Shown here piece by piece: positions 2,474 to 56,197 of a stretch of DNA of 64,000 bases (its first letter is position 1; every line of letters starts with the position of its first letter). The DNA is from a virus. Its lineage: Duplodnaviria > Caudoviricetes. A program made the translations under genes and the position numbers. Under the pieces are notes generated by a model. That model ran no database searches. It saw only the letters and a list, made by a program, of their open reading frames with translations, and was not told where the DNA came from. The stretch lies in IMG/VR virus record IMGVR_UViG_3300020465_001196. One strand, given 5' to 3'.

Positions 2474-3070
2474 TTAATATAATTTTACTGTATTTTTAAC
2501 AGGAACACCTGTTTTAGCCAGTTCACGCATAACATTTTGAACTCCAACTACTTGCCTAAATGCATCGTGTAAAGCATGGTGTTTATCTGCTTTTGGCATA
2601 TTAGGATTAATGCCTAAATCAAATAATGTCCTAGTATCACGTATATCATAGAATTTCCAACGTATTCCAAGCTCTAGACGTTTACATACTTCTTCAATTA
2701 TCATTAAATCAAAACAAGATCCATGACTCCATGGCTTTTTAATTCCAAAAGAAAACTTGTTTAATTCACGCATTGCTTCTTGTATAGTAACTCTATTACC
2801 CTCACCAAATGCTTCATCTTGTGCTTCTTTAGGCTGTGTTCCCCACCATTCAATAGTTTGCTCATTGGTAATAAGTCCAATTTTTAAACAAGAATCTAAA
2901 TCAATTCTTTTGTAATAAACTTGATTTGGTGGTAATTGATCTACAGTTATTTTACTATAATCTGCGTGTGGATCAAACTTAATAGCGGCCATAGTTACAA
3001 TAGCGGCATTGTTTGATGTAGACAGAGTTTCTAAGTCAATCATTAAATCCATAGTTGTATTATAGCACAA
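2474..3070 (-). CDS. DEDDh 3'-5' exonuclease (DexA/Rv2179c-like)
   Basis: MIDLETL (ExoI), FD (ExoII) and HHALHDA (ExoIII) motifs. The probable start is the ATG at 3052. Confidence 0.85.
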   Translation of the reverse strand: MCYNTTMDLMIDLETLSTSNNAAIVTMAAIKFDPHADYSKITVDQLPPNQVYYKRIDLDSCLKIGLITNEQTIEWWGTQPKEAQDEAFGEGNRVTIQEAMRELNKFSFGIKKPWSHGSCFDLMIIEEVCKRLELGIRWKFYDIRDTRTLFDLGINPNMPKADKHHALHDAFRQVVGVQNVMRELAKTGVPVKNTVKLY

Positions 3071-25168: not shown

Positions 25169-26386
25169 TTATTTTTTTGAATTAATTATGTCTTCTAGTC
25201 CAGGAGCAATATCAAGGATATTTTGCTTACGTGTTTTGTCTAAATGTTCAGTATATTCAATAAATTTATCTGTATGTTGCGACCAATCTTCGTCCATCAT
25301 ATAATTTATTAAGCCTTGTACTTTTGGCTTGTCTATGTATTTTTGCAAGTCTTCTGCAACACATTCCTTTAAGTGTAATGGTAACACTCTAACATTTAAG
25401 TAATCTGGATGATCAAGTATGTTTAAATATGGAAAATAATTATACTGTTCCAAATACTTAAACAAATCAGATATATCAAGAATATTATATATTTGTACAG
25501 TAGTATGAACTTGTACTCTCATTTTACCTTCTTTTTCCATTTCATAAAATGCTGATAAGTTTTTGTGTACTGATTTCCAATTTGTTGGATATCTAATATA
25601 TCTGTTTAGTTCATCATATCCATCTATAGATGCGTTGATCTTAATCTTTTTAAAGTGTTTCCAATATTCAATCATCTTTGGTGGAATATTAGTTAAGTTG
25701 GTATTGTACTTTAAAATAATATCTTTTGCTTTGTCTAATTCAATACAACGATCAAACAATTTATATTGTTCAAGTGCAAGTGTTGGCTCACCACCTGTTA
25801 AGTATATTTCCTCTACACTATTAATAATTGGCATTAAATTTTCCCAAGTCTTTTCATTAGTGGGCCAATTCATATGTTTTAATCTTGTACGTTCTTCTTC
25901 TGGTATATCTGTTCCATCATATGATGTTGTTGTATTCCATTCTTCTGTCCATTGATTACTTGCCCATGGATTACACATTCTACATTTTAAATTACATAAA
26001 TTACCTAAACGCAAATCAACATAACCTACAGTTAAAGGAGCATTACCTTCTTTGTCTGTGTTAGAAAGTGCACCTTCTATAAAATGTGAATATGCTTCAT
26101 TAAAACTTTGTCTTGCTGATTTAATATCACTTGCTTCTTCTCTCCAACAACGTTGACACATCGTTGGCTTTTCTTCATTTAGTAACTGCAATCTTAAATC
26201 CTTATATGTTTCTGAATTCCACATTTCTTTTACATCAGAATTATAAATTTTATAAGGAGCACCAGTTTTATCTAAAATAAAATTTTTGCCAGGGGTTGAA
26301 TTACAACATACTCTATAATTTCCACTAGAATTGGTTGCTAAATGCATCCATGGTAATATACAAAATGTTTTAGACTCTTTCTTCAT
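25169..26386 (-). CDS. Radical SAM protein with N-terminal twitch/SPASM domain
   Basis: FCILPWMHL..G.YRVCC, CQRC, CNLKCRMC, TGGEP and YNTN. Confidence 0.92.
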   Translation of the reverse strand: MKKESKTFCILPWMHLATNSSGNYRVCCNSTPGKNFILDKTGAPYKIYNSDVKEMWNSETYKDLRLQLLNEEKPTMCQRCWREEASDIKSARQSFNEAYSHFIEGALSNTDKEGNAPLTVGYVDLRLGNLCNLKCRMCNPWASNQWTEEWNTTTSYDGTDIPEEERTRLKHMNWPTNEKTWENLMPIINSVEEIYLTGGEPTLALEQYKLFDRCIELDKAKDIILKYNTNLTNIPPKMIEYWKHFKKIKINASIDGYDELNRYIRYPTNWKSVHKNLSAFYEMEKEGKMRVQVHTTVQIYNILDISDLFKYLEQYNYFPYLNILDHPDYLNVRVLPLHLKECVAEDLQKYIDKPKVQGLINYMMDEDWSQHTDKFIEYTEHLDKTRKQNILDIAPGLEDIINSKK

Positions 26387-27671
26387 TTACTTCCTCGAAT
26401 AGTTCTGCTAACTGCGGAACAATTTTTTTAATATCTGTTTTTCGTAAACTATCAACATCACGTGTAAACTGAACAAATTCTTTTATACGTTGCTTATTAT
26501 ATGTATCATTGCTTTGTAAATTCTTCATAATATTGCCAAATCCTATATCCCCTTGACTAAAAACTCCTTCATTTGGATTTCTATCTTGTGGCCAATATTC
26601 ACCTTGTGGCAACTCAGCATCTTTCATTATTTCATATGCTTTTAATTTTAATCTATTAGGTAATATTTGAAAATTTAAATGTGGTGGATTAACAACAACA
26701 TTTTTAAAATAAATTTCATTTGTTGGTTTACGTATTTTTAAATACCATTTCCATATATCTGATAAATTAAAAATATTATATATTTGTACTGTTACTGTAT
26801 AAATTATAACCGTGTTTGGTAATCTATTAAATTCAAGTATGTTATTTTCTAATTGTTCTATAGTGAAGTTATCTCCTCCACGTATATATTGATACAACTC
26901 TCCTGTTCCTTCTAAACTAATATGCAACTTAACTAATTTAAAATGTTTAGCAATATTCATTAATCTTTCATTCATATATGTTCCGTTAGTATTAATATCA
27001 AGCATAACATTTTTTGCAATATCCCATTCAATAAATTGTTCCATTAATTGATAATTTTGTTCTTCCATTAATGGCTCACCACCTGTTAATTTTAAAAATT
27101 GCAAATCTTTAAAATATTCTCTTTTTTCTAAAACATTTTTAATTACTTCAAAATCAACTTTTGAATATTTTCCAGTTTTACGTTCAGGCATCCAACTAGG
27201 GGTTATTTTTGCTAACTGAATTTCTTCTTTTACCCAACTACTAGAAACTTGTCCATTGCACATCCTACATTTTAAATTACATTTGTTAGATGAGTTAATT
27301 TCTAAATACCAAATATTTGGTTTATCAAATGGATTATATGTTGCTGTTTTTAAAAGTTCAGATGGTATATTTCTATAAAAGTATTGACGTCTTGAACTTC
27401 CTACTGTTTCTTCTTTTTTAATACAACTAGCACATATTTCTTTATGTGGTAATCCTGCTGTCCATGACTTACGTAAAGATTGTGCTCTAGGAGAATCCCA
27501 TAACTCTGTTAAAGTTTTTTCATATATACTTCCATATGGAGAAAATGATACAGCATCAGCATATACTAAACCATCCCATTCGATAGTTAGACTATGCCAA
27601 GGTGCTACACATTTTTTAGTGATTGTTTTGTGCCAATCCCAATCACGTTTTTTCCATTCTTGATTGTCCAT
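26370..27671 (-). CDS. Radical SAM protein with degenerate N-terminal twitch domain
   Basis: CVAPW..DG.VYADA (CC lost), CASC, CNLKCRMC, TGGEP and INTN. Confidence 0.92.
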   Translation of the reverse strand: MDNQEWKKRDWDWHKTITKKCVAPWHSLTIEWDGLVYADAVSFSPYGSIYEKTLTELWDSPRAQSLRKSWTAGLPHKEICASCIKKEETVGSSRRQYFYRNIPSELLKTATYNPFDKPNIWYLEINSSNKCNLKCRMCNGQVSSSWVKEEIQLAKITPSWMPERKTGKYSKVDFEVIKNVLEKREYFKDLQFLKLTGGEPLMEEQNYQLMEQFIEWDIAKNVMLDINTNGTYMNERLMNIAKHFKLVKLHISLEGTGELYQYIRGGDNFTIEQLENNILEFNRLPNTVIIYTVTVQIYNIFNLSDIWKWYLKIRKPTNEIYFKNVVVNPPHLNFQILPNRLKLKAYEIMKDAELPQGEYWPQDRNPNEGVFSQGDIGFGNIMKNLQSNDTYNKQRIKEFVQFTRDVDSLRKTDIKKIVPQLAELFEEVNEERV

Positions 27672-28714
27672 TAGAAATAATTTTCCTGCTCTCCTTTACG
27701 TCTTACATCTGCTGTTAAACAATGTACTCCGCCATCCCAAAAATATTGGTGTCTAAATTTCCAATATATAGGTGTTACTCCATGCTGTTCTAGTTTTGCA
27801 AATACTTCTTTATCTGTTCCTGTGCAAATAACTTTATCTTCTGATACACTTAACATATTAACATCGAATACAGTTTCATCAACATAGCCAATCCAATGTG
27901 ATAACCATTTTTCAATATAATCTTTATAAAAATGTTCTTTACGTGTTTGTTTAAAATCTTCAGGAAATTTTGTTCCTGATTCTGTTATAATACAATCCCA
28001 AGATTTTAACTTTTCTGGTATCCATGCTTTTTTCCAAGTAACAAGTAAACCTGGTTTAATTAATGCTACTTTACCATCAGCATGACCACCAACTGGTATT
28101 TCATTAAACGTAAATTCAGGTAATTGTCTTTTATACCATTTTAGTCCTTGTTCTGTACCTTTGCCTTTTATAGGATCTTTTTGATTTGATTGTGAATAAA
28201 ATATATCTTTACCACACTTTATTAAATTAGCATTATGAAAAAGTATTTCGCCTTGATTATAATAATCTTCATATGTTTTTTGATTAAGATTTGGCTTAGG
28301 CATTGATATCCATTCCGCCCCTTTATTATGATACTCTTTTAATATATGTGATGTGTTCCAATTTTCAAAATACCTTGTTCTATCTTTTGTGTATGCTTCT
28401 ATAATTTTATTACCATAAAATCCTAATATATCTCTTGGCTGTAAAGGTTGGTTTGCATATTCAATATCAAATTCACCCATATCATACTTTGCAAGTGGAT
28501 CTTGCATTACTTTAGGACGTTGTACTACTACACCTTCTTTTTGTAATATATCAACAAGTACTTCTAAATCTTCTGCTGTTTCTGTAAACACTCTTTTTAA
28601 AAGATCTTTAGCTTCTTGGTTAAAATCACTTTTATCAAAACAATCAGGTGCGTATGTATTACCTACTATAACTTCTTCTAATTGTTGAAACTCTGAATAT
28701 GCTTTTACTATCAT
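27671..28714 (-). CDS. Arginine-dependent amidinotransferase (glycine/inosamine-phosphate amidinotransferase family)
   Basis: SEFQQLEEVIVG start, QPRD, HADG (His/Asp) and C-terminal DGGVHCLT (catalytic Cys) of the pentein fold. Confidence 0.88.
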   Translation of the reverse strand: MIVKAYSEFQQLEEVIVGNTYAPDCFDKSDFNQEAKDLLKRVFTETAEDLEVLVDILQKEGVVVQRPKVMQDPLAKYDMGEFDIEYANQPLQPRDILGFYGNKIIEAYTKDRTRYFENWNTSHILKEYHNKGAEWISMPKPNLNQKTYEDYYNQGEILFHNANLIKCGKDIFYSQSNQKDPIKGKGTEQGLKWYKRQLPEFTFNEIPVGGHADGKVALIKPGLLVTWKKAWIPEKLKSWDCIITESGTKFPEDFKQTRKEHFYKDYIEKWLSHWIGYVDETVFDVNMLSVSEDKVICTGTDKEVFAKLEQHGVTPIYWKFRHQYFWDGGVHCLTADVRRKGEQENYF

Positions 28715-29277
28715 TTTTCAAATTCCTCACTATCATATTTGCTGTCTTTGTATCTTCTTTTTACAATAGCATCATAATATTTTTTATCCCAATTATCATA
28801 ATACTTTGTGTTCCTATGAATCCACTCTGACTTTTCATTTAAATCTGCAAGTCCTTGTATTTGTATAATTGCTAAACCTTTATTACCAGATCCTAATCCA
28901 GGAATAAGTTTATCTGTATTTTTTTCAACTCCTACAGAACCTTGTTTTTCTTCTGATTTATAAGATGTATAAATGTATAAATCATTAGCAACTGCTGTTG
29001 GTTGATTTTCATTTTCCCATTCTTCTAATTGTTCTAATGAATAATCGTTAGGGTCACCTATACACAATACCAATTGTTTTTCTTCTGGATAATTTTCAAT
29101 AGTTTCATCTGCAATTTTAAACATATCTTTTTTAACCCATTTAACTTCAACTTCATTACGTTTGAATCCCATTTTTGCAAATGGACATATAGCCATACCG
29201 TCTAATTCTTTACGTGGCTTTGTAACGTGGTCTTTCATTTCTTCCCACTTTTTATGTAGATCAGATTGTTCCGCCAT
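28711..29277 (-). CDS. Hypothetical protein (DUF1415-like CPFA motif)
   Basis: ICPFAK motif; coupled to the amidinotransferase gene. Confidence 0.55.
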   Translation of the reverse strand: MAEQSDLHKKWEEMKDHVTKPRKELDGMAICPFAKMGFKRNEVEVKWVKKDMFKIADETIENYPEEKQLVLCIGDPNDYSLEQLEEWENENQPTAVANDLYIYTSYKSEEKQGSVGVEKNTDKLIPGLGSGNKGLAIIQIQGLADLNEKSEWIHRNTKYYDNWDKKYYDAIVKRRYKDSKYDSEEFEK

Positions 29278-30730
29278 CTTCTAATTCTTTCTCAGTTTTT
29301 TTATCAACCATTTCACCTGTGTTGACTTCAACCATATTATCTTTAGATTCATCTAGTAAGTCTGCCATCTCTGGAAATACTTTAGTAAAGTCAGTTCCTC
29401 TTTGCTTATCAAATTTTACTATGTATTCTCTAAACTGTGGCATACGTTGTGACCAATCTTCACTCATCATAAATTTGATCATGCCTTGTAATCTTTTAAT
29501 TCCGTAACTTGCTTCCATAAATGCTTCTTTGTTTGGTGCCCCTGATAATTTCCAATTGTTTAATAACCATGGATAAAATTCTTCATATTTTTGTTTTGTT
29601 TTATCTTTCATCCATTGTGGCAATGCTTTTACATTTAGATGTCCAGGCCAATATACAAAATGATAATTAATCATTCCTGCTCCAAAAGGCCATATGTTAA
29701 TTTTTTTAAAATTTTGCTCCCATTTCCATTTAATAAAATCTGGTATATAATAAATGTTTAGTGCCTGTACTGCACACGCCACAGTAACTTCAACTTTATC
29801 TTCTGTATTATCTAACAAATGAAATTGCTTAACTGTATTATCCCAGTCTGCTGGAAAACGTATATAACGATTCATTTCTTCAATTGAGTCTACACTATAA
29901 TGAAACCTTACTCTTTTAAAATGACTCCATAATTCAAATAATCTATCTGGCATTTCAACACCATTTGAATTATAACGTAATTCTATTTTGTGTGCATATC
30001 CACGTTTTATAACTTCTTCTAATAATGTATAATGTTCTTCAATAATTGTTGACTCACCACCTGCAAAGTATAACTGATACATATGAGGTATTTGTTCGTA
30101 TAACTGATCCCAAAACGTTGGATTATTTTTATGCCAGTTATATGTAGCACCATGCATTTTTCCTTTATTGTCCCATCCCATTGTTTGCTTTAATTCTTTA
30201 TTTTCAATAGTAGGGTAAACTTCTGTCCAATCTTTAATCCATAGTGATGAATCATGTGGGCTACACATAATACATTTTAAATTACATTTAGATCCCATAC
30301 GTAGATCTAAGTATCTAATTTTTGGAGGAATAGAACCATCTTTTGCTGTTTCACCAATAATTTCATCTATGTCATATCTGTTTAACCAGTATTCAGTTTC
30401 CCACATACGTTTTGAATTATGTCCTGCGTCTTCTTCTTTGTAACATTTTAAACAAGCAGGTGGTTTATCTCCGTTTAACATTTGTAAACGAACATTTTTC
30501 ATATAGTCATTATTCCATGCTTCCATTAAATTTGAATTATTTAAGTTTGCAGGTTTACCACTTTGTGTTTTTAAAACACCTACCTGACCGCCATGTTTTT
30601 TATCATTAGTTGCACCTACTGAACTTGCGTTCGCTGTACAGCATACACGCATATTACCGTCTGGTCTAGTTGATAAATGCATCCATGGTAAAGCACAAAA
30701 AGTTTTTGATGGTAGTTTATTATTGCTCAT
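29261..30730 (-). CDS. Radical SAM protein with N-terminal twitch/SPASM domain
   Basis: FCALPWMHL..DG..RVCC, CLKC, CNLKCIMC, AGGE and YNSN. Confidence 0.92.
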   Translation of the reverse strand: MSNNKLPSKTFCALPWMHLSTRPDGNMRVCCTANASSVGATNDKKHGGQVGVLKTQSGKPANLNNSNLMEAWNNDYMKNVRLQMLNGDKPPACLKCYKEEDAGHNSKRMWETEYWLNRYDIDEIIGETAKDGSIPPKIRYLDLRMGSKCNLKCIMCSPHDSSLWIKDWTEVYPTIENKELKQTMGWDNKGKMHGATYNWHKNNPTFWDQLYEQIPHMYQLYFAGGESTIIEEHYTLLEEVIKRGYAHKIELRYNSNGVEMPDRLFELWSHFKRVRFHYSVDSIEEMNRYIRFPADWDNTVKQFHLLDNTEDKVEVTVACAVQALNIYYIPDFIKWKWEQNFKKINIWPFGAGMINYHFVYWPGHLNVKALPQWMKDKTKQKYEEFYPWLLNNWKLSGAPNKEAFMEASYGIKRLQGMIKFMMSEDWSQRMPQFREYIVKFDKQRGTDFTKVFPEMADLLDESKDNMVEVNTGEMVDKKTEKELEDGGTI

Positions 30731-47581: not shown

Positions 47582-47829
47582 ACCTCATCGCAATTGTTTT
47601 TATCATTCCAATGTTTTTCATTAAAATGTTCCGTAAATGCCTTATGTTTTAAAATTTTTTCTAAAGAATGTTTTTTTAAACTATTCCAATTTTCTTCTAA
47701 CTTACTCAAGTACTTACTTCTTTCTTCAGGAAATGCTTCCCTAGTTAACAAATAACAGCAAGGATAAACTTTGTTATCATAGTCAATAATAATACCTTTT
47801 GACTGACATTTAATTGCCATATGATCCAA
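47545..47829 (-). CDS. Stand-alone twitch/SPASM Fe-S domain
   Basis: IKC...D..VYPCCY...CDEVC. Likely start is the ATG at 47820. Confidence 0.75.
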
Positions 47830-48505
47830 CCCTTTCTACCAATGCTTCTTTGTTATATATATTAGCACACTTTTCTTCTAATTGCACTCTTAAAGTTAAA
47901 TCTTTAATTAAGTGATTGTAGTATGCTGATGTCCTATTGTTCATATGTGGAACAAATTCAATATTGTTTTCTTTAGATATTTTATAGGCCTCATCAAGTT
48001 GATCGTAATTAAAATCAAATACTAAAAAATTCCAAACTGTCATTTGATTACTATGTTTTGCATGAGTCATCATATTTTCCCATGCACGATCAAATTCAAC
48101 TCCAACTCTATATTTTGAGTTTGTTTCTTCATCTATTCCATCTATAGCAAATATTACTGAAACTTTATTTTTATATTTTTTTGCAATTTTTTCATACCAA
48201 TCTTTTGTACGTATTCCACCATTTGTATGTAATTGTACTCTATAATTATTTTCTACAGCATAATCAAGAAAGTCTTCAACTTGTGGATGCATAACTGGAT
48301 CACCATAATCTCCGCAAAAACTTATAACTTTATTAGGCTTGGTTTGATCTAATGCATTTTTATATTCGTCCAAAGGAAGATGTTGCAAAGGTAACCAGTC
48401 AATTTTTTCTAAAGTTTTTTTATTAGTTCTTGCACACAAAGGGCATTTAGCCTGGCAATATGTTGTTATAGAAAATTCTACGGTGTTTAATGATGTCCAA
48501 TCCAT
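47810..48505 (-). CDS. Radical SAM core domain (lacks the C-terminal SPASM domain)
   Basis: CQAKCPLC, CGDYGDP, HTNGG and FAIDG. Confidence 0.88.
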   Translation of the reverse strand: MDWTSLNTVEFSITTYCQAKCPLCARTNKKTLEKIDWLPLQHLPLDEYKNALDQTKPNKVISFCGDYGDPVMHPQVEDFLDYAVENNYRVQLHTNGGIRTKDWYEKIAKKYKNKVSVIFAIDGIDEETNSKYRVGVEFDRAWENMMTHAKHSNQMTVWNFLVFDFNYDQLDEAYKISKENNIEFVPHMNNRTSAYYNHLIKDLTLRVQLEEKCANIYNKEALVERVGSYGN

Positions 48506-48843
48506 TATTTGTCACCCTCATCAACTTTACCAACATAGCCTTTTAGCCATCCGACCTTTTGATGAGTTTTAGTTTTCTTTATAGAATCGTTTTTCATAGT
48601 TTTATTAATAATAACACGATTTTGCTCTGTGTCAATCTTTTTTTCTACTTCTCTCATTTTGATTCTGGCCTCATCTTTGAATTTCATTTCAACTTCTGGT
48701 CTTGGATTAATTTTAACAGTTTCAACTGAAATTTCTTTTGGCCTAACAACTTCGTATTCTTCAACTGTTGAAATTGATGCTTTTTCGCTTACAATGTCTT
48801 GTGTTTTAATTTTATTATCGTCAACTAAATTAACATTAATCAC
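48505..48843 (-). CDS. Hypothetical protein
   Basis: 112-aa ORF with a GTG start. Confidence 0.5.
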   Translation of the reverse strand: MINVNLVDDNKIKTQDIVSEKASISTVEEYEVVRPKEISVETVKINPRPEVEMKFKDEARIKMREVEKKIDTEQNRVIINKTMKNDSIKKTKTHQKVGWLKGYVGKVDEGDK

Positions 48844-48854
48844 GTCGGACTTGG

Positions 48855-50249
48855 TTATCCTTTTTTTTTCTCAGTGCTGTCGTCAGTATCAATTTTGGCA
48901 GTTTCGTCTATGTTGATAACCAACTTTTCTGGTTTATCCTGCTCTAAACTTTTTTGATAATCTAACTGTTCTTGTAATTCTTTTTCTGCTTCAGATAATT
49001 TTTCACCAAATTCTTTTATTTCTTGTTCATGCCTTTTTTTTAGATCATTTATTTCTTGTTCATTATTATTTTCTTCAGGTTGTTTTTTTGGTGCTTCACC
49101 TGTGTATGCTTTTATTAATTCAGGATCATACTCATATTGTTTTTCAAATCCTCTTCCAAATCTTCTAATAAATGACATATTAGCCGCTACTAATAAACAT
49201 ACTGCTAGTGGATCAAATACAAATATAATTGTAATAATAACCCAACGTACTGCTTCTTCTAACAAATTTTTATCTGCTTCTTGACCGTATATAAATTCTG
49301 CAATATATTTCAATGGACCAACTTCTACTTCAAGTTTTTGCTGTTCCATTACAATAATAATTTTATCTTCATTTACTTGATTTAATGCATCTTGTTCTTT
49401 TTCAATGAATATTTCTAACTCATCAATTCTTACATCAATATTTTCTGTTTTAACGTTTGCTTCTGATCTTAAACCTGTAATTGTAGCATTAATATCTTCA
49501 ATTTGTGATGAATATTTTTCATCAACTTTTGTAAGATTTTCTTGTAATTTATTTTGTATTTCTACAATAATTCGCTGTGCCGCAGATGCTACTGCAAGTT
49601 CATTTGCTTTAGCTTCTGCTATTGCTGTATCTAACTTCTTCTTACTAAAAGAACCTTTAAATCTTTCTTGTGCCGCGGCAATATCTGCTTCTTTACGTTC
49701 TTTTGCTTGAGCAAGTCTATTATTTTGTATTTCAATATCTTTGTCTGCTTGAACTCTTAAAGTATTCTTTTCTTCTTTAATTCTTTCGTATAATACTGCT
49801 AGTTCTTCATTTTGCTTGTCAATTAAAATATCAACACGAACATTCTGTCCACTGTTAAGTCTTGCAATTTCATCTGACCATCTAGTAATTTTGTTTTCTG
49901 ATCTTATAATTTTTTCATTTATATTATCTAACTTAACTTGTTGAGTTGATCCTAATGATGATTGTTCAACGTGTGCTTTAGATAAAAATCCAAATATACC
50001 CATTGATGTAATAAGCATTAATACAACAACTGCTATTGATAGATACGTTTTAATTGCGAGACCTGCCGCCTTCCAGTTTTGATATAACCAAGAGGCTGTA
50101 ACTAATTTACCTACTTCAAGTACAGTACCCATAATCATAATAGGAATTGCGGCCGCGGCAAAAATAGCCGCCAACCCTGCAATTGAATAGTAAATTGCTA
50201 CCGCTGAAATACTTAATGCGGTCAATAATGTTAGTATTGCCATAAACAT
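48855..50249 (-). CDS. Multi-TM coiled-coil membrane protein (conserved in T4-like phages)
   Basis: N-terminal TM helices with LEVGKL and SMGIFGFLSKAH, a long coiled coil and IIFVFDPLAV. Confidence 0.75.
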   Translation of the reverse strand: MFMAILTLLTALSISAVAIYYSIAGLAAIFAAAAIPIMIMGTVLEVGKLVTASWLYQNWKAAGLAIKTYLSIAVVVLMLITSMGIFGFLSKAHVEQSSLGSTQQVKLDNINEKIIRSENKITRWSDEIARLNSGQNVRVDILIDKQNEELAVLYERIKEEKNTLRVQADKDIEIQNNRLAQAKERKEADIAAAQERFKGSFSKKKLDTAIAEAKANELAVASAAQRIIVEIQNKLQENLTKVDEKYSSQIEDINATITGLRSEANVKTENIDVRIDELEIFIEKEQDALNQVNEDKIIIVMEQQKLEVEVGPLKYIAEFIYGQEADKNLLEEAVRWVIITIIFVFDPLAVCLLVAANMSFIRRFGRGFEKQYEYDPELIKAYTGEAPKKQPEENNNEQEINDLKKRHEQEIKEFGEKLSEAEKELQEQLDYQKSLEQDKPEKLVINIDETAKIDTDDSTEKKKG

Positions 50250-50269
50250 AGTATTATTTATGTTAAAAT

Positions 50270-50608
50270 TTAGGTAGTTTTAGGTTTATTATTAAACACC
50301 ATTGTGAGATATAATTCTTCATTACCTGTATTTGTAATATAATGTTCTTCTTTACCATCATATAAAATAACGTTTCCTGCGGAAATTTCAAAGGTGTTTT
50401 CTCCAATTGTCATTGTTCCGTTGCCTGAATGAATATAATATATTTCATCGTTGTTTGGATGTGAATGGCTAAAGGACTTTTTACCAGGTTGAATTTTTAT
50501 TCCGCCAACTGATATTGTTTCTAATGCATTAGTTTCAATTACAGAATAATCATCATTACTATCTGTTGTTTCGCCAATTATCTTATAATCTTTAAAAATA
50601 GTTTTCAT
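50270..50608 (-). CDS. Cupin domain protein
   Basis: HSHPNNDEIYYI.SG.G and H.I.N metal-binding motifs. Confidence 0.85.
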   Translation of the reverse strand: MKTIFKDYKIIGETTDSNDDYSVIETNALETISVGGIKIQPGKKSFSHSHPNNDEIYYIHSGNGTMTIGENTFEISAGNVILYDGKEEHYITNTGNEELYLTMVFNNKPKTT

Positions 50609-51272
50609 TTTTTTCTTTCATTTCAAAGTTACTATAAAAATTTAAAAACCAATCCATAAATTCATCTGAATTATTTAAAAATGTTAGTTTTTTTCTATTA
50701 CTAAAAGAGTTTAGTTTTTCTGGTAATTTACCATTAACTTTTAAGTTTGGAATATCTTCAAACCATACTAATTTTTCAATATTTAAATTTTTTTGCTTTT
50801 TTTCTAACTCTTTTAGTCTTGATGCTAAATCATCAAACCATTCTTTTTTATACGTAAATTTTTCTTTTGCTTTTAACATATAATCAAACTTTAATTTAGA
50901 TTCATAATTAACCCATAGTTTAGTTGTAAATCCTAAACCATAACTTAAAAATTGTCCTAATACATCTTTTCTTTTTACAAGAATAACTGGCATTTTAAAT
51001 ATGTAATCAAAAATATGTTTGCTCATATCAGGTCCTGGATGTACTTTAAATATACTTGGTTGAGATAAATCATTTTTAATTCTTAATTTTGTTTCTTGAT
51101 CAATACCTTCTTTATCATGTATATCAGGCCATCCATCATAATGTGGTGAAAAGTGTGCAAATCCAAATTTTTCAGATAGTGGCTTATGCTTTGGATATTC
51201 ATTAGCATACCATTTAGTTATAAAGTTTGTTCCACATCTAGGATTTCCATAAATGATTTTGTGTGGTATCAT
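50592..51272 (-). CDS. Sulfotransferase-like P-loop protein (paralogue of 3761..4450)
   Basis: YGNPRCGTNF, FKVHPGP.MSKHIFDYI, KRKDVLGQF.SYG and YKKEWFD shared with 3761..4450. Confidence 0.6.
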   Translation of the reverse strand: MIPHKIIYGNPRCGTNFITKWYANEYPKHKPLSEKFGFAHFSPHYDGWPDIHDKEGIDQETKLRIKNDLSQPSIFKVHPGPDMSKHIFDYIFKMPVILVKRKDVLGQFLSYGLGFTTKLWVNYESKLKFDYMLKAKEKFTYKKEWFDDLASRLKELEKKQKNLNIEKLVWFEDIPNLKVNGKLPEKLNSFSNRKKLTFLNNSDEFMDWFLNFYSNFEMKEKNENYF

Positions 51273-51715
51273 TTTTCATAAATTGCAGAATTGGCCCCAT
51301 GCTCTGCACATTCAACTTTTACAACATAACATCTATTATCAGTTTTTTCTCTAATAAGTTTGTCTGCAAAGTTAAAGGCGTGTTCCGCAAATTTTTCTGT
51401 GCCAACACCATCCATGATAACAATACTTGCAAGATCCATTTCTTCAAGTTCTTTAAACTTATCTAAATGTGGATCCTTTGCGTCTAATACAAGTTTGTGA
51501 TCAAATGAATCTTCAAGCCATTTTTTTAAAGGCTTTAATCCACCAAAATCAACTGCCCAGTTTTTATTATCTAATTCATCACAACCAAATGTAAATGTAA
51601 ATGCTAGACTATATCCGTGTAGCAAGTGACAATGTGAATGATCTGCGTTGGGCTGTCTAAAAACTGCACTCAACCCAATATTGTGTCCATAGTGTTTTGT
51701 ACTATAATGTGCCAT
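51269..51715 (-). CDS. queD: 6-carboxy-5,6,7,8-tetrahydropterin synthase
   Basis: SHCHLLHGY, VDFGGLK, FDH and E...NSA motifs. Confidence 0.92.
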   Translation of the reverse strand: MAHYSTKHYGHNIGLSAVFRQPNADHSHCHLLHGYSLAFTFTFGCDELDNKNWAVDFGGLKPLKKWLEDSFDHKLVLDAKDPHLDKFKELEEMDLASIVIMDGVGTEKFAEHAFNFADKLIREKTDNRCYVVKVECAEHGANSAIYEK

Positions 51716-51731
51716 ATGTTTCTCCTGTTTC

Positions 51732-51772
51732 TAACGGCAGAGTGTTTTGTGAGGGTTGACGTTGAGTCCTCA
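51732..51772 (-). promoter_or_regulatory. Candidate preQ1-I-like riboswitch
   Basis: UGAGG-13 nt loop ending AAC-CCUCA stem, followed by an A-rich tail, between a sigma70 promoter and the queD SD. Confidence 0.45.
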
Positions 51773-51801
51773 TATGCAAAGTGCGTTGTATCATAATGTA
51801 T

Positions 51802-51830
51802 ATAATACACTCAACAACGCACCTTGTCAA
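51802..51830 (-). promoter_or_regulatory. Sigma70-like promoter for queD
   Basis: TTGACA-N17-TATTAT. Confidence 0.7.
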
Positions 51831-51835
51831 GAAGA

Positions 51836-52054
51836 TTACTTATGTGGGTCAAAATCCTTTGTTATATTGGATTCTTTCCCTCTTAAGTAGTGTTTAGATG
51901 GTTCGTAGGATAACCATCTTTTGAACTTTTTCACCTGATCCGACTGGTCGGCTGGCTCTTTCAACGATCTTTGCTGTTTACTAAACACAGCATTGAGCAT
52001 TAAGATCCCGTCGCCCATGGATCTAAATATTTTTTCCATAGACTTATACTCCAA
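51836..52054 (-). CDS. Hypothetical protein (doubtful; may instead be structured RNA)
   Basis: 72-aa ORF with a TTG start in a hairpin-rich, GC-richer stretch. Confidence 0.35.
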   Translation of the reverse strand: MEYKSMEKIFRSMGDGILMLNAVFSKQQRSLKEPADQSDQVKKFKRWLSYEPSKHYLRGKESNITKDFDPHK

Positions 52055-52137
52055 TTATTAATTGGGATCGGCTTACCGTCTTTTGATGTAATCTGAGGCG
52101 TTGGGCTTACTACCATTTGTACTTATATTTTTTCTCT

Positions 52138-52158
52138 AAAAAGAAGCCTATAATAGGC
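52138..52158 (-). terminator. Possible intrinsic terminator downstream of rplK
   Basis: GCCTA-TTA-TAGGC followed by TTCTTTTT. Confidence 0.4.
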
Positions 52159-52271
52159 CAAATTTTAAATCCAAAATTGTCAAGACTATATTAATAGATT
52201 TATTCGAAAACAAATTATTTCAAAAATGCTGATATGCAAATAATACATAACAAAATTATTTTGCTATGCGT

Positions 52272-52694
52272 TTATTTTACAACTTCAATACTCATTGATC
52301 GACATGAACCTTCAACTTGCTTCATTGCTTGTTCTACTGTAAAAGCATTCATATCTACCATTTTCTTTTCAGCTATTTCTTTTACTTGAGCTTTGGTGAT
52401 TCGCTTTATTATCGAACGACCAGGTGTTCTTCCACCCTTTTTTAAACCAACGGCTTTAAGTATGAAATAAGAAACAGGAGGTTGTTTTAGCTCAAAGTCA
52501 AAGGACTTGTCCTTATATACCTTAATAGTAACTGGTATTGGACCTTCAAGAGATTTTGTTTTATCATTAAACTTCTTACAGAAGTCCATGATATTCACAC
52601 CTCTTTGTCCTAGAGCTGGTCCTACCGGTGGGGCAGGTTTGGCTTGTCCGGCTTGAATCTGTAACTTAATTAAGCCAACAACTTCTTTTGCCAT
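52272..52694 (-). CDS. rplK: Ribosomal protein uL11
   Basis: [44 protein letters not shown] and G.CRSM. Confidence 0.96.
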
Positions 52695-52705
52695 AAGTCT
52701 CCTTT

Positions 52706-52975
52706 TTATTGTGCTGGTGTATTATCAGCAGGTGCTTCGTTAGATGCTTCTGCAGACGCTTCACCAGGTGTTTCTAATAACTTTAATCCAGTAGCAACCG
52801 GTTTGCCATTATGCTCTTTAACTTCGTACTCAAGAGCTTGACCTTGGTCTACTTTTGTAATGTTTGCTTCTTTAAAAGCAGTAACATGAACAAAAACATC
52901 TTTGCCACCATCATCTGGTACTATGAATCCAAAACCTTTTGCTCCATTATACCATTTTAGTTTACCTGTACTCAT
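52706..52975 (-). CDS. cspA: Cold-shock protein
   Basis: [15 protein letters not shown] (RNP1) and DVFVHVTA (RNP2), with an acidic C-terminal tail. Confidence 0.92.
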
Positions 52976-52985
52976 TTGGTCTCCT

Positions 52986-53243
52986 TTATGTCCTATTAAT
53001 ATTTATAGAGGATGACTCGCCTCTATTCTTGTTGTAATATACCTTGTAAGCACCACCAGTTGGTAGCAACTCACAGGATTTCAACTTTGGATTTGTATCA
53101 ACCCAATGTTGGAATTCTTCTTGCATTTTACCTTTGCCTGTAATAACTGTTACGTATTTCATATCTTTACTATCATCAATAAATTTTTTAAATTCTTCCC
53201 AAGCCTCGTGTATGTAATAACCATGTAAATCTAATATTGGCAT
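52986..53243 (-). CDS. Stand-alone Smr domain protein
   Basis: LDLHG, VITGKG and GGA..V motifs. Confidence 0.85.
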   Translation of the reverse strand: MPILDLHGYYIHEAWEEFKKFIDDSKDMKYVTVITGKGKMQEEFQHWVDTNPKLKSCELLPTGGAYKVYYNKNRGESSSININRT

Positions 53244-53246
53244 ACA

Positions 53247-55316
53247 CTATTTGTTTGCTCCTACTATTTCTTCTTGTACGTTACTTGGTACAATTTCATA
53301 ACTATTAAATTCCATGCTGTATGACGCTCTACCGCTTGTTAAAGAACGTAAATTACCAACATAACCAAACATAGATGCTAATGGAACTAGTGCATCTAAT
53401 ACTAAACCATTACCTCTTGGTTCTTGTCCTCTAATCTGTCCTCTACGTGAACTTAAATCACCTATTACATCTCCTAAATATTCTTCAGGTGTAATAACTT
53501 CTACTTTCATCATAGGTTCTAATAATACTGGGCCTGCTTGTTTTATGCCTTCCCTAAAAGCGGCTCTTGCCGCAATTTCAAATGCAATTGCTGATGAATC
53601 AACGTCGTGATATTTTCCATCTAGCAATGTTACTTTATAATCTACTGTTGGCCATCCTGCTAATACTCCTGAATAACCTTGTGTTTTAAATCCATCTTCT
53701 ACTGATGGTATAAATTCTTTTGGCACGTTACCACCTTTAATTTCATCTGTAAATGAATAACCATCACCACGTTCACCTGGTTCAATATTACAAACAATAT
53801 GTGCAAACTGTCCTGAACCACCTGATTGTTTTTTGTGTGTGTAAGTTACTTCATATGATTTTGTTATTGTTTCTCTATAAGCAACTTGTGGTTTACCAAT
53901 ATTAGCACCAACTTTAAATTCTCTTTTCATTCTGTCAACAATAATTTCTAAATGCAACTCACCCATTCCACTTAAAATTGTTTGACCTGTTTCTTGATCT
54001 GTTTTAACTCTTAAACTTGGATCTTCTTGTACAAACTTACCAAGTGCTTCTCCCATTTTTTCTTGGTCGTCTTTTGTTTTTGGTTCTACTGCAATATCAA
54101 TAACTGGTTCTGGGAATACCATACGTTCTAATACTACTTCACTATCTTGTGCAACTAGTGTATCACCAGTTGTAACATTTTTTAATCCTACAAATGCAAT
54201 AATGTCACCAGCTTGAATACTTTTTACTTCTTCTTTAGAGTCGGCGTGCATTTCATATATTCTACCAATACGTTCTTTTTCATCTCTTGTTGAGTTATAA
54301 AGTGTATCTCCTGAACTTGCTTTACCACTATATACTCTAGCAAATGTTAATGCACCATATTTGTCATTAATAATTTTAAATGCTAATGCACTAAATGGTA
54401 GTGATGGATCTGATTTAATTGGATCTTTTTGTTCACCGTTTTCATCTATAGACCATATTGCATCAACTTCAGTTGGTGCAGGCAGATAACTTACTACAGC
54501 ATCTAGTAATGGTTGTACACCTTTGTTTTTAAATGCACTTCCACAAAGTACTGGAACAAAGTCAAATGCAACTGTACCTTTTCTAATACAAGATTTAATT
54601 TGCTCTACTGTAGGTTCAGTTCCTTCTAAATATAATTCCATAATTGCTTCATCTTGTTCAACTACAGTATCAATTAATTCTGTTCTATACTTTTCAGCAT
54701 CAGCTTTCATATCTTCTGGAATTTCTTGTTCACTAAATGAAGCACCTAGTTGCTCACCGTCCCAAACTATTGCTTTCATAGTAACTAAATCTACAATACC
54801 TTTTAAATTAGATTCTGCTCCAATTGGTAATGTTAAGATAACCGGTGATGCTCCTAATCTTTCTTTGATCATATCAACACATCTTAAAAAGTCAGCCCCT
54901 GTTCTATCAAGTTTGTTTACAAAACAAAGTCTTGGAACTCTATATTGGTCTGCTAAACGCCAGTTTGTTTCTGATTGTGGTTCTACACCTGCTACACCAT
55001 CAAATACTACAACAGCACCATCAAGTACTCTTAATGATCTGTTTACTTCAATGTTAAAGTCAATGTGACCTGGTGTATCAATAATATTAATTCTGTGATC
55101 ATCCCAAAAAACTGTAGTTGCCGCGGATGTAATTGTTATACCACGTTCTTGTTCTTGTTCCATGTAATCCGTTGTCGCGGCCCCATCATGAACTTCACCA
55201 ATTTTATGTGATTTTCCTGTGTAATATAGTATCCGTTCTGTCGTTGTTGTTTTACCAGCATCAACGTGTGCTATAATACCTATATTTCTATATCTATTTA
55301 AATCTTTTATATTCAT
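53247..55316 (-). CDS. fusA: Elongation factor G
   Basis: [45 protein letters not shown] and YHDVDSS; full length at 689 aa. Confidence 0.98.
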
Positions 55317-55343
55317 TTGTATTAAGTATGTAGTTTACTCTAT

Positions 55344-55754
55344 TTATATTTTACCTTCTTTAATCAGCCTCTTACGATTGCTTAAATGCATTTTTTGTAT
55401 ATCATCTTTACTCTGTCCATTGTACACTACTGCATAGCCTTCGTCAACCATTTTCTGATTAATTGTGGTTTTATCATATATAAACTCTCCCAATATACGA
55501 CCAAACTTACCTGTTTTGTCTTTATGGGTTCTTAATACTGCTGATGATCCCACTGGATAGTGGGTTTTTAAATAATTTTTTGATAATATTCCAAATTTCT
55601 TTTCTTCTTTATCACGTGTTCTAGATTCTGGAGTATCTATTCCTAGTAATCTAACACGTTCTTTGTGCATCCATGTACCAAATCCTAGATCTACATCTAC
55701 GTCAACGGTATCACCATCCACTATTCTAAGTATTTTACATCTATATTCGTACAT
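55344..55754 (-). CDS. Thermonuclease (SNase-like) family protein
   Basis: VDGDT, RVRLLGIDTPE and GKFGRIL. Confidence 0.9.
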   Translation of the reverse strand: MYEYRCKILRIVDGDTVDVDVDLGFGTWMHKERVRLLGIDTPESRTRDKEEKKFGILSKNYLKTHYPVGSSAVLRTHKDKTGKFGRILGEFIYDKTTINQKMVDEGYAVVYNGQSKDDIQKMHLSNRKRLIKEGKI

Positions 55755-55761
55755 TTATTTT

Positions 55762-55944
55762 TTAATTAATTTGTGCTAACTGTTGGTTATTTTCAATATG
55801 TAATATTTTGTCTTTAATCCAAAGTTTTCTTTTTTTCATTACTGTGAGCTTAACTTCATCATCACCATTTGTTGTTAATTTTTCAATCGCAATGTGTAAT
55901 CTTGCGTGTTCGTCCTTTAGTTGTTCTAATTCACCATTTACCAT
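55762..55944 (-). CDS. YdcH/DUF465-like small coiled-coil protein
   Basis: L..EH..L...I...MKKRKLWIKDKI. Confidence 0.7.
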   Translation of the reverse strand: MVNGELEQLKDEHARLHIAIEKLTTNGDDEVKLTVMKKRKLWIKDKILHIENNQQLAQIN

Positions 55945-55945
55945 T

Positions 55946-56197
55946 TTACTCGTCTCCTTTTTTATCTAATTCTACGTCTAAATGTTCAACTGTGTATTCA
56001 GAATCATCATCTTTAACTGTTGGAGTAACTATTATTTTAGCACCTTTACTTTCAGAAAGTTCAAAAACTAACGTTCCTTCAGATTCTTCGTTACCTAACA
56101 TTCCTTTATCATAAAGATATTGTGCAAATGCATCTACTACTTCTTGATATGTTAAATTAAAAGTTTTAGAATCGTTGTTATTGTTATTATCTGTCAT
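55946..56197 (-). CDS. Hypothetical acidic protein
   Basis: 83-aa ORF. Confidence 0.55.
   Translation of the reverse strand: MTDNNNNNDSKTFNLTYQEVVDAFAQYLYDKGMLGNEESEGTLVFELSESKGAKIIVTPTVKDDDSEYTVEHLDVELDKKGDE

Follow-up and report, generated by a model that had tools for sequence, protein, structure and literature searches.

The leader of a queD-like gene in the 64,000-nucleotide stretch of DNA analyzed here (the window) carries, with near certainty, a conserved regulatory RNA. Our comparative analysis points, with somewhat better than even confidence, to the pseudoknot in this leader being the predicted sensor domain of an uncatalogued class of ligand-sensing riboswitches. A more specific form of this prediction is that the class, to date seen only in phages, has a 40-nt pseudoknot that detects an intermediate of the 7-deazaguanine or pterin pathway, or an unexpected ligand, and responds by turning ON the translation of a lone QueD; in our estimation, this falls slightly short of an even chance.

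The window is phage DNA of approximately 31% G+C, with ribonucleotide reductase, DNA ligase, and phage-only protein families. It is represented in metatranscriptome assemblies and in marine metagenomes from many studies, and megablast of positions 48000 to 56000 against isolated phages gave no match. A first-pass annotation had proposed a preQ1-I-like riboswitch upstream of queD, assembled from a TTGACA-17-TATTAT promoter, a UGAGG/CCUCA stem, a 13-nt loop (ACUCAACGUCAAC) whose final base is C (51755), an A-rich tail, a CGUU segment complementary to AACG of the loop, and a Shine-Dalgarno (SD) sequence. All of these parts are present on the minus strand, and the locus is arranged as follows:

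51802-51830, minus strand: sigma-70-type promoter, TTGACA (51830-51825), 17-nt spacer, and TATTAT (51807-51802), with 11 of 12 matches
51777-51826, not assigned to a strand: 13-nt inverted repeat, 12 of 13 positions complementary, with arms at 51826-51814 and 51789-51777 that bracket the -10 box
51733-51772, minus strand: the whole aptamer-like H-type pseudoknot, 40 nt, identified by covariation and by a covariance model match of 50.7 bits (E 4e-13)
51722-51726, minus strand: SD sequence AGGAG, separated by 6 nt from P2 on one side and by 6 nt from the ATG (51715) on the other, as read from the sequence
51269-51715, minus strand: QueD-like (PTPS-fold) gene of 148 aa, matching PF01242 (E 2e-14) and phrog_2389 (E 1.6e-39)

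The queD promoter is the top-scoring promoter-like site within positions 51200 to 52300, and the transcript start is expected near 51795. The pseudoknot separates this promoter from the ribosome-binding site, and relatives have the -10 box 7 to 12 nt ahead of P1. RNA contigs from two metatranscriptome studies stop at 51772 or 51774, with others resuming at 51818 or 51892, and those of a third study run through. These contigs are at most a faint indication that a transcript 5' end lies close to the aptamer, given that contigs cannot show RNA ends and that the uncovered gap is itself not evidence. Two other forms of leader-based control were considered and rejected. Transcription attenuation was set aside because the leader holds no terminator-like site, and an upstream ORF or leader peptide was set aside because the AUG within P1 is not conserved (many leaders have AGAGG or AAAGG at this position).

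Alignment with relatives resolved the pseudoknot into two helices and three loops, all on the minus strand:

51768-51772, minus strand: P1 5' strand, UGAGG, pairing with 51754-51750
51764-51767, minus strand: L1, ACUC; the family consensus is A-C-U-U plus 0 to 7 variable nucleotides
51757-51763, minus strand: P2 5' strand, AACG (51763-51760), an unpaired invariant U (51759), and CA (51758-51757), assigned from the alignment
51755-51756, minus strand: L2, AC, 2 nt; W followed by an unpaired C (51755) at the P1/P2 junction
51750-51754, minus strand: P1 3' strand, CCUCA, assigned from covariation
51740-51749, minus strand: L3, CAAAACACUC, approximately 10 nt; an A-rich stretch followed by a conserved A-Y-U-C (51743-51740)
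51733-51739, minus strand: P2 3' strand, UG (51739-51738), C (51737, opposite the invariant U), and CGUU (51736-51733), assigned from the alignment

P2 is bipartite, with 4 + 2 bp around the invariant U facing a nearly invariant C. The two pairs beyond the four seen originally are an invariant C-G and a pair that is A-U in 42 and G-C in 17 of 60 distinct sequences, with none unpaired. Because P2 extends by these two pairs, L2 is only 2 nt long. The loop-ending C beside P1, which had been singled out from the window sequence alone, proved to be invariant in all 58 distinct sequences compared. The same 58 sequences have an A as the first base of L1 in 50 cases, matching the deviation from U that had been pointed out, followed by a C in 58 and then a U in 57, and the A, U, and C of the L3 A-Y-U-C are invariant. 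Altogether, 11 positions are invariant, 8 of which are unpaired: the top G-C pair of P1, the C and U of L1, the mismatch U, the C-G pair of P2b, the C of L2, and the A, U, and C at the 3' end of L3. Invariant unpaired nucleotides of this kind are typical of what would be a binding pocket.

Aligning the queD leaders of related phages and looking for covariation, as the first-pass annotation had proposed, indicated that the H-type pseudoknot is real and that its structure is conserved before queD homologues, with both P1 and P2 covarying. Across 42 distinct elements, 88.5% of cells pair compared with 40 to 62% when the partners were slid, and the covariation score was 0.545 compared with at most 0.21 after sliding; none of 500 shuffles reached the observed value. 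With the extended P2, 60 distinct sequences gave 90.2% pairing (37 to 59% when slid) and a score of 0.52 (at most 0.18 when slid). The inner four pairs of P1 occur in relatives as GAGG/CCUC, GCGG/CCGC, AAGG/CCUU, GUGG/CCAC, CCGG/CCGG, GUCG/CGAC, and GACG/CGUC, and one P2a pair varies as GC (17), AU (15), CG (15), and GU (11). A covariance model from the 42-sequence alignment of relatives found the pseudoknot as its single match in the 64-kb window and identified 86 copies in the fetched loci, with E-values from 1e-9 to 1e-17. Since the window sequence gave no signal when folded alone (z = -0.54), support for the structure comes from this comparison with relatives.

The compensatory changes keep both Watson-Crick and G-U pairs, and the latter are sensible only in RNA. 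This covariation already contradicts the alternative that the leader holds a DNA-level element without any RNA function, be it an operator or a promoter module, or that its complementarity is due to chance. The inverted repeat bracketing the -10 box in the window would suit a DNA-level element, as would the coincidence of the L3 region with a TTTACA-17-TATAAT promoter-like site in three contigs (L060, L067, and L079), but the repeat is outside the conserved element, and the element itself is strand-specific and always located between a -10 box and a ribosome-binding site. The covariance model E-values argue against chance as well, and we regard this alternative as having next to no likelihood. 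The two arms of the inverted repeat fall within the -35/-10 spacer and the early transcript, respectively; the repeat is probably separate from the RNA element and could be an operator for a dimeric repressor that adds transcriptional control.

The protein encoded by this queD has more than 590 relatives in IMG/VR at 84 to 92% identity, and most of 80 fetched relative loci carry the element before the gene. We also searched IMG/VR in a gene-blind manner, using a strict DNA pattern derived only from the RNA. The search returned 120 matches, 118 of which satisfy the P1, P2, and R-Y pairing rules. All 116 testable copies precede a PTPS/QueD-family ORF within about 750 nt, and the remaining 2 run off their contigs. 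These downstream ORFs all match PF01242 and fall into three subfamilies (42 window-like, 44 in a second, and 30 in a third), with the second and third being approximately 38 to 44% identical to the window's protein. We found the element in many uncultured aquatic phage backgrounds in which the neighboring genes vary. When IMG/VR was searched for exact copies of the window's promoter with its leader, or of its aptamer, none turned up.

Two contigs (L019, positions 2840 to 3030, and L009, positions 2880 to 3030) have flanks that are 90 to 93% identical and differ by the exact presence or absence of a 44-nt element. The allele without the element starts queD with TTG instead of ATG. Judged from this pair of alleles, the element is modular. 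In a further contig (L060), the whole leader occurs twice (2123-2168 and 2920-2965), each time with the aptamer and an SD hairpin (CCUAUG/CAUAGG); one copy lies before queD and the other before a 236-aa ORF of no known family, which is the only non-QueD copy seen.

Two looser DNA patterns gave mostly chance matches. As scored by the covariance model, 21 of the 119 viral loci obtained with a loose pattern were true copies; in bacterial genomes, the same pattern matched at least 120 loci, and none of the matches listed was a true copy, a result that cannot show absence. Among 806 bacterial genomes sampled, none matched the strict pattern, although these are a sample and not proof of absence; the bacterial samples included 401 genomes of the phylum of a Flavobacteriaceae genome and 401 of the class of a Roseicyclus genome.

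We examined how the pseudoknot might be connected to translation of queD and identified one further segment in the leader:

51734-51739, minus strand: anti-start segment, UGCCGU, the alternative partner of AUGGCA (51715-51710), paired in the MFE fold

This segment takes in five of the six bases that pair in the P2 3' strand, along with the unpaired C at 51737. Predicted energies for the window are -5.6 kcal/mol for the anti-start hairpin and about -0.8 (nested) or -3.8 (as a duplex) for P2. Because the anti-start hairpin is stronger, P2 would need added stabilization, such as from tertiary contacts and a ligand, to win. In the window, the predicted probability that the AUG pairs with the anti-start segment is 0.89 compared with 0.23 for shuffled sequences, 9% of which reach the window's value. 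Across predicted ensembles of the leaders, AUG pairing with the P2 3' region had a mean of 0.45 compared with 0.17 when shuffled, and 18 of 46 leaders individually reached 5% or less; given the relatedness of the sequences, these shuffle p-values overstate independence. The start-codon helix exceeded shuffles in two subtypes and in the window. In other subtypes, the helix appears as GUCAUUG/CAAUGGC, GUCAUC/GAUGGC, or CCCAUAA/UUAUGGG, with matching differences on both strands (AUUG/CAAU versus AUC/GAU and CC/GG versus GCC/GGC).

Two broader tests of this wiring were null. Accessibility of the whole ribosome-binding site did not differ significantly from that of shuffles (mean z = -0.2), nor did pairing of the SD and AUG to the 3' half of the aptamer (0.32 compared with 0.27 when shuffled; 0.41 compared with 0.44 for the window). 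In the largest subtype (GAGG with UCGAC), we found no start-codon pairing and only a weak 4-bp CUCC:GGAG helix. Among the leaders, the SD lies 5 to 29 nt beyond P2 and never within it, so P2 cannot hide the SD directly. The OFF logic of preQ1-I is not borne out by this arrangement, and the alternative pairing points to ON. Because the P2 3' strand competes with the start-codon helix, the element is predicted to be an ON switch; these models suggest ON as the better-supported direction, with the shuffle tests of wiring mixed. A point against this reading is that biosynthetic enzymes are, to our knowledge, seldom governed by ON switches.

Considering these features together with the pathway of the downstream gene, we propose a model in which a small molecule would bind at the P1/P2 junction, beside the invariant unpaired C (51755). 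The junction C and the pathway suggest that this ligand would probably be a heterocycle presenting a guanine-like face, for instance an intermediate of 7-deazaguanine or pterin metabolism. In the ligand-free state, UGCCGU (51739-51734) would pair with AUGGCA (51715-51710) and translation would be low. Ligand binding would lock the pseudoknot and free the start codon, turning QueD translation ON.

preQ1-I riboswitches are compact H-type pseudoknots in which P1 has 5 to 6 bp and its minor groove accommodates an A-rich L3; the specificity base is a conserved cytidine in L2, a uridine of L1 and an adenine of L3 read the ligand edge, and the SD is sequestered (PMC10622847). If the queD element were a divergent member of this class, it would bind preQ1 (or preQ0) and repress queD. 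With preQ1-I (RF00522; represented by B. subtilis queC, T. tengcongensis, and E. coli yhhQ, types I to III), the element shares its topology, being likewise a very small H-type pseudoknot in which P1 has 5 bp, P2 is short, and L3 is A-rich, as well as predicted translational control and a link to genes of the queuosine/7-deazaguanine enzyme family. It also shares the invariant C that ends L2, directly preceding the P1 3' strand beside the P1/P2 junction, which is a positional likeness only. In contrast to preQ1-I, L1 of the element starts with A and consists of A-C-U-U plus an insert rather than being U-rich, and L3 ends in an invariant C instead of A, with the invariant A located 3 nt further upstream. 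Furthermore, L2 is 2 nt long, P2 is bipartite and, at 6 to 7 bp, includes an invariant U/C mismatch, and the SD falls beyond P2. The logic predicted from the competing helix is ON rather than OFF, and the regulated gene is a solitary phage queD instead of a bacterial que operon or transporter gene.

Covariance model searches also failed to place the element in preQ1-I. At gathering score, Rfam 15 gave no preQ1 match across the whole window and no family of any kind at this locus. At E <= 10, no preQ1-I, preQ1-II, preQ1-III, guanidine, SAM, or THF family matched any of three leader types (window 51600-51900, L046 355-460, and L005 2915-3005), although the PreQ1 model (RF00522) does detect the B. 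subtilis sequence used as a control. We consider membership in preQ1-I very unlikely; the accompanying hedge of the first-pass annotation, that the leader might represent a variant class or bind another ligand, fits the evidence. By these comparisons, the element is a small pseudoknot aptamer of the preQ1-I type in its predicted working and is not a preQ1-I member.

Guanidine-III (ykkC-III, RF01763) and SAM-II/SAM-V riboswitches are likewise H-type pseudoknots of approximately 40 to 50 nt with a loop docked in a helix groove, but they had no Rfam match here and differ from the queD element in their conserved nucleotides and in having an unrelated gene association. Guanidine-III is an ON translational switch with GGAC after the P1 5' strand. 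THF-II (the folE motif) is a functional analogue in that it is a cis-regulator of a neighboring step in the GTP-to-pterin pathway. Unlike the queD element, THF-II is a bacterial OFF switch formed by a simple hairpin with an internal loop, and it has no sequence or structure match in the leader. We found no paper in the literature describing the element.

A different possibility is that the leader contains a real cis-regulatory RNA that does not sense a metabolite. Such an RNA could be bound by a protein, either QueD itself in autoregulation or a phage translational regulator, or it could be a ligand-free folding, stability, or temperature element that sets the openness of the start codon. A protein operator travelling with its gene would fit the covariation and the gene association as well as a riboswitch does, and the mixed outcome of the wiring tests counts toward a non-metabolite RNA. 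The natural aptamer-less alleles count in the same direction, because their existence indicates that the element is dispensable. The T4 gene 32 leader, which contains a 5' pseudoknot, is a precedent for a translational regulator of this kind. Pseudoknot operators bound by the product of their own gene are known, with rpsO/S15 as an example (PMC3985624).

Like the queD element, the T4 gene 32 and rpsO-S15 operators are 5'-leader pseudoknots governing translation initiation. However, those operators bind their own protein and repress, whereas a stabilized pseudoknot in the queD leader should open the start codon and activate, which for a protein-bound element would amount to positive autoregulation and would be rare. 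In addition, the conserved loops here are common to divergent QueD subfamilies, so that binding by protein would need a common surface for 8 unpaired invariant positions across three subfamilies with about 40% identity. An operator bound by QueD is also at odds with the copy in L060 that precedes a non-QueD gene. A dedicated phage regulator would have to account for the many backgrounds and unrelated neighbors in which the element is found, with no accompanying regulator gene evident. Weighing both sides, we view an RNA without metabolite sensing as unlikely while granting it an appreciable share of the probability.

For a ligand-sensing riboswitch as preferred here, the nature of the downstream gene bears on what might be sensed. 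QueD in the window shares 49.6% identity with its counterpart from Pseudomonas phage Iggy, a protein encoded within a QueE-QueC-QueD-FolE-DpdA cluster. Because the Iggy homologue sits in this que cluster, the QueD-like family belongs to 7-deazaguanine synthesis. With TIGR03367, the NCBIfam QueD equivalog, the window protein scored 36.9 bits, below the cutoff of 89.25. Residues 28 to 36 of the window protein contain C-H-L-L-H-G-Y in the region corresponding to C-x-x-S-I-H-G-H in a solved QueD (7v0f), and Iggy QueD likewise has HGY. The phage QueD subfamily with HGY may bind metal or substrate differently.

The regulated queD is solitary and not in a que operon, which makes its pathway and the ligand harder to assign and counts against the riboswitch model. 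The 64-kb window contains no homologue of Iggy QueC, QueE, FolE, or DpdA, and across 118 neighborhoods of about 10 kb, we found QueC in 0, DpdA in 0, QueE in 1, and FolE in 5. Gene content around queD varies, with 2OG-Fe(II) oxygenases, cupins, and methyltransferases among the neighbors. The window has six tRNAs, among which we found tRNA-Asn(GUU) and tRNA-Asp(GUC), the Q-family tRNAs that had been noted in the first reading of the sequence.

If the riboswitch prediction is correct, the phage would read the metabolic state of its host to time expression of an auxiliary metabolic gene. New riboswitch classes with strong comparative support are rare, and those apparently confined to viruses are rarer. 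At 40 nt, the sensor would be among the smallest natural aptamers, and its combination of a preQ1-I topology with a different core would be useful for understanding how small pseudoknots change ligand or logic. The ligand would show the role of solitary QueD in abundant marine and freshwater phages and the cue that is monitored during infection. The hundreds of natural variants, together with the aptamer-less alleles, constitute a ready experimental series.

Several additional observations concern the surroundings of queD. Radical-SAM proteins are encoded on the minus strand of the window, three in a row (405, 433, and 489 aa; 25169-30730) and a fourth of 231 aa (47810-48505), and none of them scores as QueE. 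A 226-aa ORF (50592-51272, minus strand) overlaps the queD stop by 4 nt and, because of this overlap, is probably translationally coupled to queD; its product matched nothing in Pfam, PHROG, or NCBIfam, and the fetched loci contain no relative of it. After queD, many other contigs carry a conserved protein of 232 to 237 aa whose family is unknown. Bacterial-type translation genes lie next to queD on the minus strand (52272-55316). They encode EF-G, which at 689 aa has the full set of five domains, along with an Smr-domain protein, a cold-shock protein, and ribosomal protein L11. Between a terminator-like hairpin (52159-52145) after the L11 gene and the queD promoter, the region from 51836 to 52160 contains only a 72-aa ORF, which has no family match, and this region is covered by metatranscriptome contigs.
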